64,000 nucleotides of DNA from Escherichia coli (GTDB lineage Bacteria; Pseudomonadota; Gammaproteobacteria; Enterobacterales; Enterobacteriaceae): the NCBI RefSeq assembly GCF_024223415.1, contig NZ_CP100502.1; one strand, given 5' to 3'. A program made the translations under genes and the position numbers. Positions 5,547 to 31,360 of the stretch are shown here, piece after piece. The notes below the pieces were generated by a model. That model searched no databases. It had not been told where the DNA came from and saw only the letters and a program-made list of their open reading frames with translations. Every line of letters starts with the position of its first letter. The stretch's first letter is position 1.

Positions 5547-5791
5547 GCTGCAGGCAGCCAGCTGTCGTCCTGCCAGATTTCTTCCAGCAGAGACAGGATA
5601 CGTTCTTTATCCTTGTCGTTGCGGGCTCCTGTGACAGATACAGACGGGGCGCTGCCCTGGTCTATACGCAGCCAGATTTCCGGGTAGTGTGGTTTCAGAC
5701 GTTGTTCGATTTCATTCTGTAGCGCCTGAAGTGTGCCTGATTTGAGGTTTTTTGTGCTCTGGCGGTCGAAAAGAATTTCAATGCGGATCAT
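5543..5791 (-). CDS. impC: ImpC, small first gene of the impCAB operon
   Basis: seq: 82-aa ORF overlapping the impA start. known: size and order match impCAB. Confidence 0.7.
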   Translation of the reverse strand: MIRIEILFDRQSTKNLKSGTLQALQNEIEQRLKPHYPEIWLRIDQGSAPSVSVTGARNDKDKERILSLLEEIWQDDSWLPAA

Positions 5792-5812
5792 GTTCTCATC
5801 TCCCTTTTCTTT

Positions 5813-5832
5813 TGCTGTATGTATATACAGTA
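5813..5832. promoter_or_regulatory. LexA (SOS) box upstream of impC
   Basis: seq: 'tgCTGTatgtatatACAGta' fits CTGT-N8-ACAG about 25 to 40 nt upstream of the impC start. Confidence 0.6.
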
Positions 5833-5959
5833 TTCTAATAACTGAATCCGCACACAGTCAAATGTCATTGTTGTGACTAAAAAACGCTCAATTCTCTGAG
5901 TGTGTGGCTGTATGCCTGCTGTGGGCTGCTGTGTCCAGCTTATCCACAGCATTTTGTGC

Positions 5960-6160
5960 ACGGTTCTGTGGACAAAATACCTGGTTACCCAGGCCGTGCC
6001 GGCACGTTAACCGGGCTGCATCCGATGCAAGTGTGTCGCTGTCGCCGGCCTCCTCACCCGGTCACGTTTCGTCGTTCCTCCTCCACGCGCTGCGGCTTCG
6101 GGGCCGCACCTGCATTCGTATGCGGTCGCCCGGTAACAGGTGCGGCACGGCCTGATGGAG
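5960..6160. repeat. GC-rich structured region with loose similarity to the family-A ssi-like repeat
   Basis: seq: 'gcatccgatgcaagtgtgtcgctgtcgccggcctcctcacccggtcac' resembles the family-A core 'gggatgcaagggtacgcttcgccgctgcggtcacccggtc'; lies directly upstream of the + strand ORF at 6185. Confidence 0.3.
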
Positions 6161-6184
6161 GCCGCATGTGAGAGGAGAATTCCC

Positions 6185-7111
6185 ATGCCAAACTGGTGCT
6201 CGAATCGTATGTATTTTTCTGGTGAACCGGCACAGATCGCTGAGATTAAACGACTGGCCAGCGGTGCAGTTACACCGCTTTATCGCCGCGCCACAAATGA
6301 AGGTATTCAGCTGTTTCTGGCCGGAAGTGCCGGACTTCTGCAGATCACTGAAAATATCCGCTCTGAACAGTGCCCCGGAGTGACGGCTGCCGGACGTGGT
6401 GCTGTATCGACGGAAAATATCGCGTTCACCCGCTGGCTGACACACCTGCAGAACGGTGTACTGCTGGATGAGCAAAACTGCCTGATGCTGCATGAACTCT
6501 GGCTGCAGAGCGGTACTGGACAGCGTCGCTGGGAAGGATTACCGGATGATGTCAGGGAAACCATCACTGTGCATTTCACCGCAAAAAGAGGTGACTGGTG
6601 TGACATCTGGGGTAGCGAGGATGTATCGGTGTGGTGGAACCGTCTGTGTGACAACGTAGTGCCGGAAAAAACCATGCCGTTTGACCTGCTGACGGTTCTG
6701 CCGACCCGCCTGGATGTTGAAGTGAATGGCTTTAATGGTGGTGTTCTGAACGGTGTTCCTTCTGCATATCACTGGTATACAGAACGGTATGGCGTGAAGT
6801 GGCCTTGTGGGTATGACCTGAATATCAGTAGTCAGGGAGACAACTGCATTCAGGTGGATTTCGACACGCCGTGGTGTCAGCCGGAAAGCGACGTTGTTGC
6901 AGCATTAAGCCGCCGTTTCGGCTGCACGCTGGAGCACTGGTACGCCGAACAGGGCTGCAATTTCTGTGGCTGGCAGTTGTATGAGCGCGGAGAGCTCGTT
7001 GATGTGCTCTGGGGGGAACTGGAATGGTCTTCCCCGACAGATGACGATGAGCTGCCGGAAGTCACCGGACCTGCGTGGATAGTCGACAAGGTGGCGCATT
7101 ACGGGGGATGA
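6185..7111 (+). CDS. Hypothetical Cys/Trp-rich protein
   Basis: seq: GAGAGGAG RBS before ATG 6185 (track ORF from 6140); many Cys and Trp ('NWCSNRMYF', 'FGCTLEHWYAEQGCNFCGWQ'); no motif I can name. Confidence 0.5.
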   Translation: MPNWCSNRMYFSGEPAQIAEIKRLASGAVTPLYRRATNEGIQLFLAGSAGLLQITENIRSEQCPGVTAAGRGAVSTENIAFTRWLTHLQNGVLLDEQNCLMLHELWLQSGTGQRRWEGLPDDVRETITVHFTAKRGDWCDIWGSEDVSVWWNRLCDNVVPEKTMPFDLLTVLPTRLDVEVNGFNGGVLNGVPSAYHWYTERYGVKWPCGYDLNISSQGDNCIQVDFDTPWCQPESDVVAALSRRFGCTLEHWYAEQGCNFCGWQLYERGELVDVLWGELEWSSPTDDDELPEVTGPAWIVDKVAHYGG

Positions 7112-7123
7112 AGTATGACGGAG

Positions 7124-7150
7124 ACGGGCGGGCAACCGCCCGTTTCTTTT
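7124..7150 (+). terminator. Rho-independent terminator
   Basis: seq: stem 'acgggcgg'/'ccgcccgt' with loop 'gcaa', then 'ttctttt', 13 nt after the stop of the 6185..7111 ORF. Confidence 0.55.
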
Positions 7151-7490
7151 CCGACAAAGGATGTCGCCGTGCTCCTCTGTTTACTGCGCCGGCTGATGCG
7201 GCGCGGCATAAACGCTGCCTGTGGTCAGTGTCCCGCGTCCGGCGGGCACGGGACGGGCGCTTTTACCGCTCCCGGCTGGCGTCGGTGACAGTGTACGCCA
7301 GCCTGTCGCCCTTTTCTGATGAACGCCCTTCAAGCCGCTTTCGCGGCATATTCTCGCCGTCAAAAAGACGACGGCTGCGATATTCCACGGTCGGCCTGAC
7401 CCGTTACCGGACGCGGTGAACAGCCCACAGGCAGCGGGGAACGGGCACCACAGGGGTGCCCTCCCGGTGCCCTCTGAGAAAGAAGGAGTG
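7150..7490. repeat. GC-rich hairpin-rich non-coding region (possible diverged ssi-like element) upstream of the methyltransferase
   Basis: seq: 340 nt with several hairpins (e.g. 'gggcaccacaggggtgccc') and weak resemblance to family B ('cgctcccggctggcg'). Confidence 0.2.
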
Positions 7491-7495
7491 TTGTT

Positions 7496-8179
7496 ATGTC
7501 CCGTTTTGTCCTCGGTAACTGCATTGATGTTATGGCGCGTATTCCTGATAACGGCATTGATTTCATACTGACTGACCCGCCATACCTCGTCGGTTTTCGT
7601 GACCGACAGGGGCGTACCATCGCCGGCGATAAAACCGATGAATGGCTGCAACCAGCCTGTAATGAAATGTATCGCGTACTCAAAAAAGATGCGCTGATGG
7701 TCAGCTTCTACGGCTGGAACCGCGTCGATCGCTTTATGGCCGCCTGGAAAAATGCGGGATTCAGTGTGGTTGGGCACCTGGTCTTCACCAAAAACTACAC
7801 ATCGAAGGCCGCATATGTGGGTTATCGCCACGAATGCGCCTACGTTCTGGCAAAAGGCCGTCCGGCGCTGCCTCAGAAGCCATTACCCGACGTGCTGGGC
7901 TGGAAATATTCAGGCAATCGTCATCACCCGACGGAAAAGCCTGTTACCAGCCTGCAACCACTGATTGAGAGCTTCACACATCCGAACGCGATTGTGCTGG
8001 ACCCGTTTGCAGGCAGCGGCTCAACCTGCGTGGCTGCCCTTCAGTCCGGACGCCGGTATATCGGTATCGAGCTGCTTGAGCAGTATCACCGTGCCGGACA
8101 GCAACGTCTGGCTGCCGTACAGCGGGCCATGCAGCAGGGGGCCGCAAATGATGACTGGTTTATGCCGGAGGCTGCGTAA
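7496..8179 (+). CDS. Orphan DNA adenine (N6) methyltransferase
   Basis: seq: 227 aa with 'FILTDPPY' (motif IV, DPPY) and 'DPFAGSGST' (AdoMet-binding motif I); GAAGGAG RBS. known: orphan MTases are common in plasmid leading regions. Confidence 0.85.
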   Translation: MSRFVLGNCIDVMARIPDNGIDFILTDPPYLVGFRDRQGRTIAGDKTDEWLQPACNEMYRVLKKDALMVSFYGWNRVDRFMAAWKNAGFSVVGHLVFTKNYTSKAAYVGYRHECAYVLAKGRPALPQKPLPDVLGWKYSGNRHHPTEKPVTSLQPLIESFTHPNAIVLDPFAGSGSTCVAALQSGRRYIGIELLEQYHRAGQQRLAAVQRAMQQGAANDDWFMPEAA

Positions 8180-8401
8180 ATGAACTATGCCGGACATGAA
8201 AAACTTCGCGCCGAAGTGGCGGAGGTGGCCAATGCCATGTGCGACCTGCGTACAACCATGAATGAGATGGAGCGGCGGTACAGCTTTAATGCTGACACCC
8301 TGCCGGAACGTCTGGTGCGTCAGACGTTGTTTCGCGCAAACCGCCTCCTGATGGAGGCATATACCGAAATTCTGGAACTGGATTCCTGCTTCAAAGATTG
8401 A
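8180..8401 (+). CDS. Hypothetical small protein
   Basis: seq: 73-aa ORF whose ATG directly follows the methyltransferase stop codon. Confidence 0.4.
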   Translation: MNYAGHEKLRAEVAEVANAMCDLRTTMNEMERRYSFNADTLPERLVRQTLFRANRLLMEAYTEILELDSCFKD

Positions 8402-9726: not shown

Positions 9727-10057
9727 GGAAGTCGCCGCCGGCTCCGCTTTACCCGGCCATGCGGGGCATGGCCTTGTGGGTTTTCAGTTATGTGGCCACC
9801 GTGTCGTGTGCGGGCTGTGCCGTGCCTCCATCTTAGCCGGGCTGGCAGGGATGCAAGGGTACGCTTCGCCGCTGCGGTCACCCGGTCCCTCCTTCCCGTC
9901 TGCCGTGATTTTCCGGTCGTTCACCCGCTCAGATTTCGCGGTCTCACCCTCCAACTCCCGCCAGCCGTGTGCGTCAGGCTGCGGCTTCCCTTGCGCCCTG
10001 TGCATCCCCGCCTTATCGCCCGGCTTTTATGGAGGCACGGCACCGCCCGGTGTCGCG
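9727..10057 (+). repeat. Family-A ssi/Frpo-like repeat, copy A1
   Basis: seq: about 330 nt nearly identical to 16711..17041, GC-rich and hairpin-rich, ending about 30 nt before a gene start. known: IncI1 and F leading regions carry ssi/Frpo single-strand promoters. Confidence 0.6.
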
Positions 10058-11199: not shown

Positions 11200-11905
11200 G
11201 CCCGCGCGAAAACCCCTGGCAGGCTGACGCCTGCCGGAAGGGAAGCGGGCCACGCTGGCGCGTCGCCCGTTACCCTTCCCGTCTGTGATGTGTCTGACTC
11301 AGGAGTGTTTCTTTCTTATGTTATGGAACTGTTCCTGATGTTGTTGTTCCTTTATCTGCTGCTCTGATTCTGACTACTGCAGTGTTGTTCTGTCTGCCGG
11401 GCGCACCTTCGGCTCCCGGCTGCCTGGCGGCATCCGGTCGTCAGGCCCGACTCCGACAGGCAGCTGCTGGCGCACCCGCCAGTCTCCGCCGAACCCGCTG
11501 GCGCGGTTTCGGGCTGTCGCTACGGTCCGATGCGTGAAAACCCGGGCTTGCAGCGACCGTTCCGGTCGCGCCGCCTCTGTCGCGCCGTGACCTGCGCTCC
11601 CTGCACACCTGACGGTGTGTGAGGAAACTGCGCCTGATGGCGCAGCAGTCCTCCCTCCTGCCGCCACCTCTGCGGCCTGTTTCCCGCTGTGGACTTTCCG
11701 GGGGGCAGACGTAACCCCCTCCCGTTCCATCTGTCCAGGGTGAGATGCACCGGCCACAAAATTTTTAGCCATGAACCCGGCAAAAAATTTTGCGTCCGCC
11801 CCCGGACAGCTGTCCCGTGAGGCGGTAAACGGGCCCCCATCGGAAAGGTCCACTGCGGGGAGAAACCCCTGTGAAGTGGACGGCAGGAGGAGCTTTCGCT
11901 CCTCT
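11200..11905 (+). repeat. Family-B ssi/Frpo-like repeat, copy B1
   Basis: seq: long GC-rich repeat shared with 17600..18250 and partly with 20815..21140 (e.g. 'caccttcggctcccggctgcctggcggcatccggtcgtcaggcccgactccgacaggcag'); ends about 70 nt before ssb. Confidence 0.55.
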
Positions 11906-16710: not shown

Positions 16711-17041
16711 GGAAGTCGCCGGCGGCTCCGCTTTTACCCGGCCATGCGGGGCATGGCCTTGTGGGTTTTCAGCTCTGTGGCCTCAGCGTCGTGTGCGGGC
16801 TGTGCCGTGCCTCCATCTTAGCCGGGCTGGCAGGGATGCAAGGGTACGCTTCGCCGCTGCGGTCACCCGGTCCCTCCTTCCCGTCTGCCGTGATTTTCCG
16901 GTCGTTCACCCGCTCAGATTTCGCGGTCTCACCCTCCAACTCCCGCCAGCCGTGTGCGTCAGGCTGCGGCTTCCCTTGCGCCCTGTGCATCCCCGCCTTA
17001 TCGCCCGGCTTTTATGGAGGCACGGCACCGCCCGGTGTCGC
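16711..17041 (+). repeat. Family-A ssi/Frpo-like repeat, copy A2
   Basis: seq: near-identical to 9727..10057; ends about 30 nt before ardA. Confidence 0.6.
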
Positions 17042-17599: not shown

Positions 17600-18250
17600 C
17601 CTGCCAGGCCGCCGGAAAACCCTGGCAGGCTTACGCCTGCCTGAAATGCAGGAGGGCCGCGCCTGCGGCGCTGCCCTTCCTGCCCGTCATGGTGTGAGGC
17701 ATTTTTCTGTTATGTCGTTTCTGTTGTTCTGATTTCCGGAGGCGGGGACACCTTCGGCTCCCGGCTGCCTGGCGGCATCCGGTCGTCAGGCCCGACTCCG
17801 ACAGGCAGCTGCTGGCGCACCCGCCAGTCTCCGCCGAACCCGCTGGCGCGGTTTCGGGCTGCCGCTACGGTCCGATGTCTGAAAAACCAGGCTTGCAGCG
17901 ACCGTTCCGGTCGCGCCGCCCCTGTCGCGCCGGAAACGGCGCTCCCTGCACACCTTACGGTGTGTAAGGCAACTGCGCCTGATGGCGCAGTCAACCCTTC
18001 CGCCGCCACCCCTGCGGCCTGTTTCCCGCTGTGGACTTTCCGGGGGCTGGAGTAACCACATCCCGTTTCAGCAGTCCAGGGGAAGATATACCGTCCACAA
18101 AATTTTTAGCCATAAACCCGGCAAAAAATTTTGCGTCCGCCCCCGGACAGCTGCCCCGTGACGTGGTGACGGACGCCCCATCGGAAAGGTCCACTGCGGG
18201 GAGAAACCCCGAAGAAGTGGACGGCAGAAGGGGCTTTCGCCCCTCCGGGG
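17600..18250 (+). repeat. Family-B ssi/Frpo-like repeat, copy B2
   Basis: seq: aligns along its length with 11200..11905; starts right after the ardA stop. Confidence 0.55.
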
Positions 18251-19091: not shown

Positions 19092-19155
19092 TTAACCCTT
19101 GCCGTCTGCCTGTGCAGGCGGCAGGATACGTTCAGACATCTCACCAGGAGGAACC

Positions 19156-20097
19156 GTGAGTAAGAAGAAAAACACCACAACGCCCACGCCGCATGATGCC
19201 GCGTTCCGGTCGTTCCTGGCGAATCCCGACGTCGCCAGAGATTTTCTGGAACTGCATCTTCCTGCGGAGTACCGGCAGTTGTGCGACCTGTCCACGCTGA
19301 AGCTGGAACCCGCCACCTTTGTTGAGCCGGACCTGCATCAGTACGCCAGCGATATCCTCTGGAGCGTGAAAACCACCGGGGGTGAAGATGGTTATGTTTA
19401 TACGCTCATCGAGCACCAGAGCACCGAAAATCTGTACATGCCTTTTCGCATGTTACGCTACAGTGTGGCGGCGATGCAGAGACATCTGGAGCAGCACAAA
19501 ACGTTGCCACTGGTCATTCCGGTGCTGTTCTATCACGGTGAGCGCAGCCCGTACCCGTACAGCATGAACTGGCTGGACTGTTTTGAGAATCCGGCGCTTG
19601 CGGCTAAAATATACACAAAGCCGTTTCCGCTGGTTGATATCACTGTCGTTGATGACAATGAAATCATGAACCATCGCCGGATGGCCGCACTGACGCTGCT
19701 GATGAAGCATATCCGTCAGCGGGATATGCTGATGTGTCTGGACAACCTGGTCAGAGCACTGCAGGACATCCAGGATGAAGAGCAGATTACAGTTCTTTTC
19801 AACTATCTGCTTAATGGCAGCGAACATGTAACGGTTGAATTTTTGCAGACGCTGGCGCAGCGACTGCCGCAGCACGAGGACAGCATTATGACACTGGCAG
19901 AACGTCTTAAGCAGGAAGGTATCCAGCAAGGTATCCAGCAGGGTATCCAGCAGGGTATCCAGCAGGGAGTTCAGCAGGGGGCGCTTCAAAAAGCACGGGA
20001 AATCGCCCGGGAGCTCCGGAACGCGGGAATGCCGGCAGCACAAATCTGTCAGCTGACCGGACTTTCTGAAGCTGAACTGAAGAACATCACTCACTGA
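19156..20097 (+). CDS. rpn: Rpn-family (YhgA-like, PD-(D/E)XK) recombination-promoting nuclease
   Basis: seq: GTG 19156 with CAGGAGG RBS (track from 19099); N-terminal 'HDAAFRSFLANPDVARDFLELHLP...YASDILWSV...YTLIEHQSTE' matches the YhgA/Rpn family from memory. Confidence 0.75.
   Translation: MSKKKNTTTPTPHDAAFRSFLANPDVARDFLELHLPAEYRQLCDLSTLKLEPATFVEPDLHQYASDILWSVKTTGGEDGYVYTLIEHQSTENLYMPFRMLRYSVAAMQRHLEQHKTLPLVIPVLFYHGERSPYPYSMNWLDCFENPALAAKIYTKPFPLVDITVVDDNEIMNHRRMAALTLLMKHIRQRDMLMCLDNLVRALQDIQDEEQITVLFNYLLNGSEHVTVEFLQTLAQRLPQHEDSIMTLAERLKQEGIQQGIQQGIQQGIQQGVQQGALQKAREIARELRNAGMPAAQICQLTGLSEAELKNITH
19888..20097 (+). CDS. Candidate intragenic small protein (RpnS-like), in frame with the rpn C-terminus
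   Basis: seq: internal ATG 19888 preceded by GAGGA at 8 nt spacing; would encode 'MTLAERLKQEG(IQQG)n...ALQKAREIARELRNAG...'. infer: by analogy with Rpn/RpnS intragenic pairs. Confidence 0.3.
   Translation: MTLAERLKQEGIQQGIQQGIQQGIQQGVQQGALQKAREIARELRNAGMPAAQICQLTGLSEAELKNITH
19919..19978 (+). repeat. Five tandem 12-bp repeats (ggtatccagcag) encoding (GIQQ)n within rpn
   Basis: seq: ggtatccagcaa, ggtatccagcag x3, ggagttcagcag in tandem. Confidence 0.9.
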
Positions 20098-20712: not shown

Positions 20713-20814
20713 TTTTTGATTGTAGGTGTCGTGCTGTTTTCTCTGTTTTCACCTGTGCGGGAGTGGTGTGCCAGTGACCACCACATGCCATTGTTGCGCC
20801 GTCGTTTTTCTTCA

Positions 20815-21140
20815 GTCGCGCCGGATGCGGCGCTCCCTGCACACCTTACGGTGTGTAAGGCCACTGCGCCTGATGGCGCAGCTGTCTCTGCCTGTCTGCC
20901 GCCGCACTGCGGCCTGTTCTCCGCAGATGGACTTTCCGGGGGTACATACACGACCACATCCCGTTTCAGTCGTCCAGGGGAGAGATGTACCAGCCACAAA
21001 ACTTTTTGCCGCAGGCGTCAAAAACTTTTGCGTCTGCCCCCGGACAACTGCCCCGTGACGTGGTGAGCGTCCCCCGTCGGAAAGGTCCACTGCGGGGAAA
21101 TCCCCGAAGACCCGGACGGCAGAAGGAGCTTCGCTCCTCC
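20815..21140 (+). repeat. Family-B ssi/Frpo-like repeat, copy B3 (5'-truncated)
   Basis: seq: matches the 3' two-thirds of B1/B2 from 'ggcgctccctgcacaccttacggtgtgtaagg' onward. Confidence 0.5.
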
Positions 21141-30353: not shown

Positions 30354-30505
30354 GACAAAGTCTCCATTTCTGGAATTTAAATCAAACGGAAAGGTTAAAA
30401 ATTTATTTGCAGGCGATAAGAGCTAACCAGAGGAATTAGCCGTGCGATAAAAGGATTGTTGCAGATACGAAAGTCGTTAGAATAGCTGCGGGCGCTTGAG
30501 GCTGT

Positions 30506-30790
30506 ATGCCGAAAGCGTTTTGTGGACGGTATACAGCAGAAAGCCCCTGGAGATTTTTTTATCAATCAACCAAGGGCTCTACTGTAATGCCTAGACAACA
30601 TTATAGTAGCCCGATAACCGCCGTAAGGCAATGGAGGGGCTATGATGCCACAGCGAACGTTTTTAATGATGTTAATCGTCATCTGTGTGACGATTCTGTG
30701 TTTTGTCTGGATGGTGAGGGATTCGCTTTGCGGACTCCGGCTCCAGCAGGGAAACACAGTGCTTGTGGCAACGTTAGCCTACGAAGTTAA
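30506..30790 (+). CDS. pndC: pndC (mok-like) overlapping reading frame
   Basis: seq: ORF overlapping pndA in another frame and ending 7 nt before its stop, as in hok/mok loci. Confidence 0.45.
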   Translation: MPKAFCGRYTAESPWRFFYQSTKGSTVMPRQHYSSPITAVRQWRGYDATANVFNDVNRHLCDDSVFCLDGEGFALRTPAPAGKHSACGNVSLRS

Positions 30791-31263: not shown

Positions 31264-31294
31264 CAACAGATGTAAAAAAACCGACTGGTGAGGT
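31264..31294. terminator. Bidirectional Rho-independent terminator
   Basis: seq: 'aaaaaaaccgacTGGTGAGgtcggttttttt', 6-bp stem flanked by an A-run and a T-run. Confidence 0.6.
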
Positions 31295-31336
31295 CGGTTT
31301 TTTTACTGTTCCGTTACAGAGTGGGTGGCCCTGACC

Positions 31337-31360
31337 GGAGGAAATCTCTTTTCAACTAAC
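31337..31360 (+). repeat. 24-bp direct repeat copy 1 (ggaggaaatctcttttcaactaac)
   Basis: seq: repeated at 31524..31547 with one mismatch; followed by TATAAT-like hexamers at 31366 and 31403; its first 10 nt are the reverse complement of 31593..31602. Confidence 0.8.

Follow-up and report, generated by a model that had tools for sequence, protein, structure and literature searches.

The DNA analyzed here (hereafter the window) is a stretch of 64,000 nucleotides from Escherichia coli contig NZ_CP100502.1, and it comes from an IncI1 plasmid, whose leading region holds the locus described here. Positions 5800-8300 were 100% identical to ColIb-P9 (NC_002122.1) and to many further IncI1 plasmids. 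The coordinates of the window and of ColIb-P9 diverged past about 11.2 kb, and a TnpB gene (L001:16099-17274) was present in ColIb-P9 where the window has a class 2 element and ardA; the window therefore comes from a relative of ColIb-P9 rather than from the same record. The genes and elements of the locus are collected in Table 1. An orphan DNA methylase gene, whose product was 94% identical in amino acid sequence to M.EcoGIX of pESBL, opens the operon that lies under the promoter described below. The leading-region genes ssb, psiB, ardA, and nikAB all lie downstream of the methylase gene on the plus strand and are oriented toward oriT. By a literature-based assignment, the minus strand of the window is therefore the transferred (T) strand and their template. 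A terminator-like hairpin with a T-run directly follows the stop codon of the DUF1281 gene, within a CDS annotated as a hypothetical protein; a consensus terminator scan made no call on this hairpin. A second hairpin (7186-7204) flanks the main structure, and diverged copies of the locus carried a hairpin of other sequence (CCGCGC..GCGCGG) at its place.

Table 1. Features of the window and of related loci (window positions unless a locus is named; MFE, minimum free energy)
Feature	Position	Strand	Basis or remark
impCAB	ends at 5791	-	
DUF1281 gene	6209-7111	+	stop at 7111
RefSeq 'hypothetical protein' CDS WP_010891263.1	7108-7419	+	judged spurious
Terminator-like hairpin ACGGGCGG-GCAA-CCGCCCGT (7124-7143), then TTTCTTTT	7124-7151	+	sequence by eye and fold
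Hairpin GCGCCG-GCTGATG-CGGCGC	7186-7204		flanks Y structure; fold
Class 3 ssDNA promoter (very probable assignment), Y-shaped (three-way junction) fold	7213-7436	-	MFE helices and RNAalifold consensus
Basal stem, 3' arm (T strand), putative non-template stand-in (spacer and -10)	7213-7252	-	MFE fold
Putative -10 stand-in GACACT (7232 to 7227)	7227-7232	-	
Branch 2 hairpin, loop 7283-7294, lineage-variable junction insertion	7255-7328	-	MFE fold
Invariant block, T strand 5'-TATGCCGCGAAAGCGGCTTGAAGGGCG-3'	7324-7349	-	18-copy alignment
Putative -35, first four bases TTGA	7330-7333	-	completed by CC (7252-7251) across junction (TTGACC)
Branch 1 hairpin, loop 7362-7369, 4x4 internal loop and AAA bulge	7330-7399	-	MFE fold
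Basal stem, 5' arm (T strand), putative promoter template	7400-7436	-	MFE fold
Predicted transcription start	7429 (+/- 3 nt)	+	from -10 position; 5' UTR about 67 nt
Small hairpin GGGCACC-ACAG-GGGTGCCC	7443-7461		covariation; within predicted 5' UTR
Shine-Dalgarno GAAGGAG of methylase gene	7482-7488	+	read from sequence
Orphan N6/N4 DNA methylase, M.EcoGIX homologue	7496-8179	+	Pfam PF01555, E 1.7e-40
Small ORFs	between methylase and klcA	+	
Class 2 elements (5' of klcA and ardA)	9748-10047, 16733-17032		
klcA	10086	+	
Class 1 elements (repeated ssi/Frpo family)	11398-11904, 17743-18245, 20812-21105		
ssb	11974	+	
psiB/psiA	about 14.9-16.0 kb	+	
ardA	about 17.1-17.6 kb	+	
nikA/nikB	from about 22.7 kb	+	
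Second class 3 copy, before other gene or farther upstream	L017:528-777, L023:531-781, L011:1045-1293, L026/L027:1692-1886, L061		
Putative composite promoter, Paraburkholderia (L039)			TTGACC-N17-GATTGT
Putative composite promoter, L046			TTGACC-N17-CACGAT
Putative composite promoter, L061			TTGACC-N16-GAACGT
Putative composite promoter, L060			TTGACC-N17-GAATGT
Putative composite promoter, L144			TTGACG-N19-CAAGAT
Putative composite promoter, L133 and L159			TTGACA-N19-CAATAT
Putative composite promoter, diverged enterics (e.g., L027)			TTGACC-N19-CACACT

The intergenic region that separates the DUF1281 stop codon from the methylase start codon (7112-7495, 384 nt) had a G+C content of 0.60-0.655 in 200-nt windows. 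Its minus and plus strands had MFEs of -109.4 and -107.1 kcal/mol, compared with about -78.7 +/- 4.4 kcal/mol for dinucleotide shuffles (z = -7.0 and -6.5, respectively), and none of 100 shuffles folded as well as the native sequence. A preliminary description of this DNA had placed a GC-rich, hairpin-rich element at 7150-7490; the composition and the structure were as stated there, but the extent was too generous, the conserved structure being confined to 7213-7436. A linear sigma-70 promoter scan of the region returned nothing on either strand, and no Rfam covariance model reached its gathering threshold over the promoter region (the single sub-threshold hit scored 19.7 bits versus 60).

The consensus structure obtained by running RNAalifold on an 18-sequence alignment of homologues was a Y in which a basal stem opens at a three-way junction into branch 1 (7370-7399 paired with 7330-7361) and branch 2 (7295-7328 paired with 7255-7282). 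The basal stem (7400-7436 with 7213-7252) consists of helices of 12, 10, and 5 bp with mismatches between them. Across the 18 sequences, 95.8% of the alignment cells assigned to this fold were paired, and 15 pairs showed compensatory changes. Column shuffling gave 8.3 +/- 1.6 such pairs, with none of 500 shuffles reaching 15, and a control in which the partners were slid by 1-3 columns gave 2-8. Covariation was found mostly in the bottom helix (UA/CG, CG/UA, and GC/UA/CG), in the tip helix of branch 1 (GCCGTC/GACGGC changing to GCCGAC/GTCGGC and GCCGCC/GGCGGT), and in the small hairpin at 7443-7461, where six of the nine pairs had compensatory changes, with an A-T to G-C change in F alone; the junction was almost invariant in sequence. 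The lower stem of branch 1 covaried between enterics (GGCCG/CGGCT) and Paraburkholderia (GGGG/CCCT), and its part with GGAATA/TATGCC and the AAA bulge, at the place that an UP element would occupy, was strongly conserved. The invariant block TATGCCGCGAAAGCGGCTTGAAGGGCG had two single-base exceptions among the 18 aligned copies, occurred once in the window (0 expected by chance), and lay on the strand opposite to the methylase gene in every locus. Branch 2 ranged in other lineages from 77 nt down to a 13-nt bulge, or had no hairpin; this range in length excludes it from the universal core, and the comparison suggests that it is dispensable in some lineages. All folds were computed with ViennaRNA, which models the nucleic acid with SSB coating and RNA polymerase binding outside its scope.

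An element of this kind has been published. RNA-seq of transconjugants of the IncI1 plasmid pESBL-EA11 after donor elimination (Wen et al., NAR 2025; PMC12672017) revealed six strongly induced leading-region operons with a large hairpin 5' of each. Three of these hairpins, ssi1-3, make up class 1; those 5' of klcA and ardA, which resemble each other, make up class 2; and the one 5' of M.EcoGIX is class 3, described there as unlike all of the others, with no homology to them. The same article reports 5' RACE start sites for all six ssDNA promoters, including the class 3 hairpin, conservation of classes 2 and 3 in the F plasmid, and prolonged zygotic induction in a uvrD mutant recipient (PMC12672017). 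Expression of the methylase requires the native transfer orientation (PMC7736820). A preprint on F describes 'ssp3' as a portable ssDNA promoter similar in strength to ssp2 and 'with no roadblock activity' (bioRxiv 10.64898/2026.01.09.698686); judging from the naming, ssp3 is probably the class 3 element.

The intergenic region of the window was 96.1% identical over 384 nt to pESBL (NC_018659.1) and 95.3% identical over 384 nt to F, and its core (7210-7464, 255 nt) was 97.6% identical to both, with 6-7 substitutions. The window thus has a homologue of the pESBL hairpin 5' of M.EcoGIX, at the same locus, between the DUF1281 gene and an M.EcoGIX-type methylase gene that it directly precedes, and on the same strand, with the transferred strand as template. 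This homologue also forms a large and stable stem-loop as ssDNA (z = -7.0), with a conserved and covarying fold. We found no substantive difference from the class 3 promoter of pESBL-EA11 and F, the DNAs on which activity was measured. Positions 7213-7436 are therefore very probably the class 3 ssDNA promoter known from IncI1 and IncF leading regions, which folds in the transferred strand to drive the methylase operon, and in view of the close identity the window copy is probably functional. The promoter itself is not new, having been published in December 2025; its sequence in the window is absent from the Frpo table of Samuel et al. The comparison with pESBL and F also bears on selection. 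The element was 97.6% identical, whereas the methylase CDS was 90-93% identical and its third codon positions only 77-85%; for the diverged copies described below the corresponding values were about 78%, about 80%, and about 53%. By this measure of sequence conservation, the non-coding element is under selection and as constrained as protein-coding sequence.

Searches of a plasmid database with the element and with the methylase returned at least 5000 records, and the matches were at least 93% identical among those listed. We also scanned, with the methylase protein, the contigs of a diversity sample containing one genome per species, and found 11 loci with a 73-80% identical copy of the element at the same place (Citrobacter, Raoultella, Enterobacter, Entomohabitans, Erwinia, Edwardsiella, and Hafnia); five of these (L011, L017, L023, L026, and L027) had a second copy farther upstream. 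A profile search for the element with nhmmer identified two Paraburkholderia genomes that carry the two halves of the invariant block, GACCGTGGAATA and TATGCCGCGAAAGC..CTTGAAGGG, about 150 nt before a methylase gene. The Paraburkholderia methylases showed 60-62% identity, and the DNA around the motif again folded into a Y (z = -7.5). A pattern scan of metagenomes yielded 124 matches in 120 stretches, 67 of which also had the second motif; the other 57 lacked it and were rejected as chance matches of the 18-base pattern. The true matches included diverged environmental copies (L046/L121, L133, L144, L159, L060, and L061). Of the 19 copies linked to a methylase gene, 18 had the motif 142-153 nt from the start codon of that gene, the exception (L018, 122 nt) being a locus for which the ORF-finding script chose an upstream start codon. 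Four copies precede other genes, namely a DUF1281 homologue (L017 and L023) or an unknown ORF (L011 and L061), and the promoter is therefore modular. These findings, which are new here, extend the promoter-methylase module well beyond IncI1/IncF to other Enterobacterales, to Paraburkholderia, and to environmental contigs, with the element in nearly all cases about 145 nt ahead of the methylase gene. The ORF that follows the L011 copy is 155 aa long and that following the L061 copy 129 aa; the first 60 residues of each had no Pfam match. This enterobacterial plasmid methylase was also encountered, at 88-98% identity, in contigs assigned by label to Collinsella, Oscillibacter, Oscillospiraceae, and Streptomyces morookaense (L005, L008, L014, L029, and L031), which are probably contamination or mis-binned.

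Several other accounts of the region were weighed against a promoter that folds in the transferred strand. RefSeq/PGAP annotates a 103-aa hypothetical protein at 7108-7419 in ColIb-P9 and equivalent CDSs in pESBL and F, and the ORF is open in the window; yet it had no Pfam match, it passes through the terminator-like hairpin, a 1-nt insertion in F shifts the frame of the N-terminal third relative to ColIb (the annotated F ORF begins in a different frame and joins the ColIb frame only later), and the diverged copies (73-80% identical) have stops in all six frames while retaining the DNA fold. Because of the Pfam result, the F frame shift, and these stops we judge the CDS to be spurious and the protein extremely unlikely to exist; the region 7112-7495 is non-coding, as the preliminary description had it. 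The structure could instead act at the RNA level, as an attenuator, riboswitch-like, or stability element in the methylase mRNA leader with a promoter farther upstream, and the plus strand does fold well (z = -6.5) and would place the covarying small hairpin at 7443-7461 in the transcript. However, the MFE was lower on the minus strand in 17 of 17 homologues, and the consensus energy from alifold was -104.7 kcal/mol for the minus strand versus -81.3 kcal/mol for the plus strand with RNA parameters (23 kcal/mol weaker) and -51.0 versus -32.9 with DNA parameters. One-sided changes at variable pairs on the minus strand gave G.T at 16 pairs and A.C at 5, where an A.C on the minus strand corresponds to a G.U on the plus strand, that is, in an RNA; since the minus strand was the one used to predict the consensus, this test of strand asymmetry carries some bias, but both measures agree. 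The terminator-like hairpin immediately upstream and the lack of any Rfam match also speak against a leader transcribed from farther away, as does the 5' RACE start at the hairpin reported by Wen et al. (PMC12672017). The minus-strand energies and the excess of G.T pairs thus favor, on the modeled folds, a DNA structure on the T strand, and an element acting mainly in the mRNA leader is very unlikely. A role chiefly in DNA processing, as a priming site (ssi) for complementary-strand synthesis or as a replication roadblock, is unlikely as well, if less so. Complementary-strand synthesis uses class 1 transcripts as primers and stalls at the F class 2 element, and RNA made at the class 3 element could in principle prime, but ssp3 (equated with class 3 by its name) reportedly has no roadblock activity, and the fixed spacing and tight linkage to the methylase gene point to expression. 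Priming at the class 3 element would be an added role rather than a rival one.

The region is also highly unlikely to belong, as a diverged copy, to the Frpo/ssi (class 1) family, even though it lies 5' of a leading-region operon on the same strand and forms a large hairpin. Frpo and ssi1-3 are reportedly the class 1 ssDNA promoters (Masai & Arai 1997; Bates 1999; Nasim 2004), and the class 3 element is like them in being a transferred-strand hairpin that would rebuild a sigma-70 promoter, active only as ssDNA and with mismatches in the -10 region, to drive leading-region genes. By sensitive blastn, however, the best match between the class 3 region and the class 1 family of the window was 25 nt at 80% identity, which is at chance level (E 0.02 versus the elements alone, 2.9 versus the whole window, with random places as good); comparison with the class 2 hairpins of klcA and ardA yielded E >= 0.5 only, and the class 1 copies of the window did not score with the class 3 HMM in nhmmer. 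The class 1 fold is one long hairpin with an A/T-rich tip, whereas class 3 has a three-way junction that is GC-rich and invariant in sequence, and the class 3 motifs persist in the diverged copies of other genera, with no drift toward class 1. Wen et al. likewise note the lack of homology (PMC12672017). Thus the 'weak family-B-like stretch' that the preliminary description saw here was no better than random places, and the variably diverged ssi-like kinship that it proposed for the leading-region elements does not hold for this one, given the chance-level similarity and the different fold. Its suggestion that there are more ssDNA promoters than ssi1-3 was correct, six being described for pESBL (PMC12672017), and so was that of single-strand promoter function ahead of the methylase operon, in view of the 97.6% identity to the published class 3 promoter. 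Class 2 elements share the role, the strand, and the leading region with class 3, but they have no homology to it and form a single long hairpin, and the F class 2 element blocks complementary-strand synthesis whereas ssp3 reportedly does not. On the 3' arm of the class 2 fold, TTGCAT-N15-TAAGAT can be read; by the same reading logic canonical boxes were not located in the class 1 fold, which therefore provided no calibration. The region upstream of the DUF1281 gene (5955-6155), the companion region of the preliminary description, forms a long minus-strand hairpin (z = -4.45) whose 3' arm matched the class 2 elements at 74% over 73 nt (E 3e-5), and the match spans likely boxes (TTGCAT-N15-TAACGT versus TTGCAT-N15-TAAGAT in class 2). 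This similarity suggests a diverged ssDNA promoter of class 2 type, apparently distinct from the six promoters described for pESBL.

For the class 3 element we propose the following model. The T strand would enter the recipient as ssDNA during conjugation, and 7213-7436 would fold into the Y, rebuilding a duplex promoter for the host sigma-70 RNA polymerase before the complementary strand exists. Transcription would exit at the base of the Y and enter the methylase operon (from 7496 on), so that the ssDNA-specific methylase is made at once and could protect the plasmid from restriction; on conversion to duplex DNA the fold would be lost and the promoter switched off. RNA copied from the T strand has the plus sense and runs toward higher coordinates, and the template must therefore be the 5' arm of the T-strand fold (7400-7436, on into 7370-7399), with the 3' arm, read from loop to base, standing in for the non-template strand. 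With branch 1 stacked on the basal stem, the template would be continuous from 7370 to 7436, and on the opposite strand the 3' arm of branch 1 would lead directly to the 3' arm of the basal stem, branch 2 being looped out. The composite read in this way in the window is TTGACC-N18-GACACT. The -10 stand-in matches the consensus at three of six positions; in the MFE fold its C7230 is bulged and its T7227 lies opposite a T, and in the consensus fold columns 302-304 and 307 are unpaired, including the equivalents of -11 and -7. The predicted start near 7429 falls in the covarying bottom helix, and the 67-nt leader holds the small hairpin and the Shine-Dalgarno sequence.

A composite -35 of the form TTGAC[C/A/G] was found in nine lineages, five from MFE folds and four read by hand. 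In all lineages a hexamer nAnnnT lay 16-19 nt after it and 5 +/- 1 nt before CGGGCAG, the start of the bottom helix. The spacer and the -10 hexamer varied in sequence among lineages, with the A at the second and the T at the sixth position of the hexamer kept; these are the bases flipped out by sigma-70. The duplex plus strand reads CTGACC (7396-7401), N17, AACAGC (7419-7424), with no T at -7, and this lack would explain a promoter active only as folded ssDNA. We know of no precedent for a -35 element split by a junction. Other arrangements were considered and rejected. The enteric copies also have a contiguous TTGAAG and, at the branch 2 loop, a better -10-like sequence, TACACT in the window (minus strand, 7295 to 7290, at the edge of the loop) and TAAAAT in diverged enterics; consensus positions 1, 2, 4, and 6 are conserved in it, and the TAMAMT motif is conserved in enteric copies only. 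A loop-directed promoter with these as -35 and -10 was rejected because the spacing is 29-32 nt in enterics, because the same bases would be needed as -10 and as template, and because branch 2 is absent in some lineages, such as L046; the two sequences could belong to a different promoter architecture. In Paraburkholderia, GACACT occupies the spot that matches the branch 2 TACACT, 16 nt after TTGAAG. Within branch 1, TTGACG at the loop was discarded since it is not conserved, as were hexamers around GAATAT for want of a conserved A at -11.

Taken as a whole, the composite reading is tentative, and we regard it as possible rather than probable. It holds that the -35 is assembled across the three-way junction, branch 1 supplying TTGA and the basal stem C[C/A/G], with a variable hairpin of 13-77 nt looped out; that the duplex lacks an essential T at -7 that only the folded strand supplies; that the promoter constitutes, together with the ssDNA-specific orphan methylase, a single mobile module of old origin that is common to plasmids of Enterobacterales and Burkholderiales and to uncultured environmental hosts; and that the promoter has been re-used in some plasmids before other genes (DUF1281 and two unknowns).

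The class 3 element accounts for expression of a protective, ssDNA-specific anti-restriction methylase before the second strand of the incoming plasmid is made, an early step, published as noted above, that bears on the spread of resistance plasmids. The present analysis adds comparative support for the fold, in that covariation and strand asymmetry support a Y-shaped structure of the transferred strand, which is new; it also adds the apparent dispensability of branch 2, the wider reach of the module, and a concrete, testable map of putative promoter elements.

The CDS annotated over the promoter in ColIb-P9, F, and pESBL (window 7108-7419; L003:8785-9090; L004:4394-4705) recurs in most of the matching plasmid records, of which there are thousands; a systematic annotation error is the probable cause, and the 'hypothetical protein' placed there in thousands of RefSeq plasmids is probably spurious. 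Elsewhere in the window, five tandem 12-nt repeats (CAGCAGGGTATC-like) lie at 19900-19979 inside an ORF (19099-20097). Two RNAs, the sole Rfam matches above gathering thresholds in the whole window, were recognized as the sok antitoxin RNA (30490-30647, plus strand, 134 bits) and the AgrB antisense RNA (31272-31359, minus strand, 55 bits).
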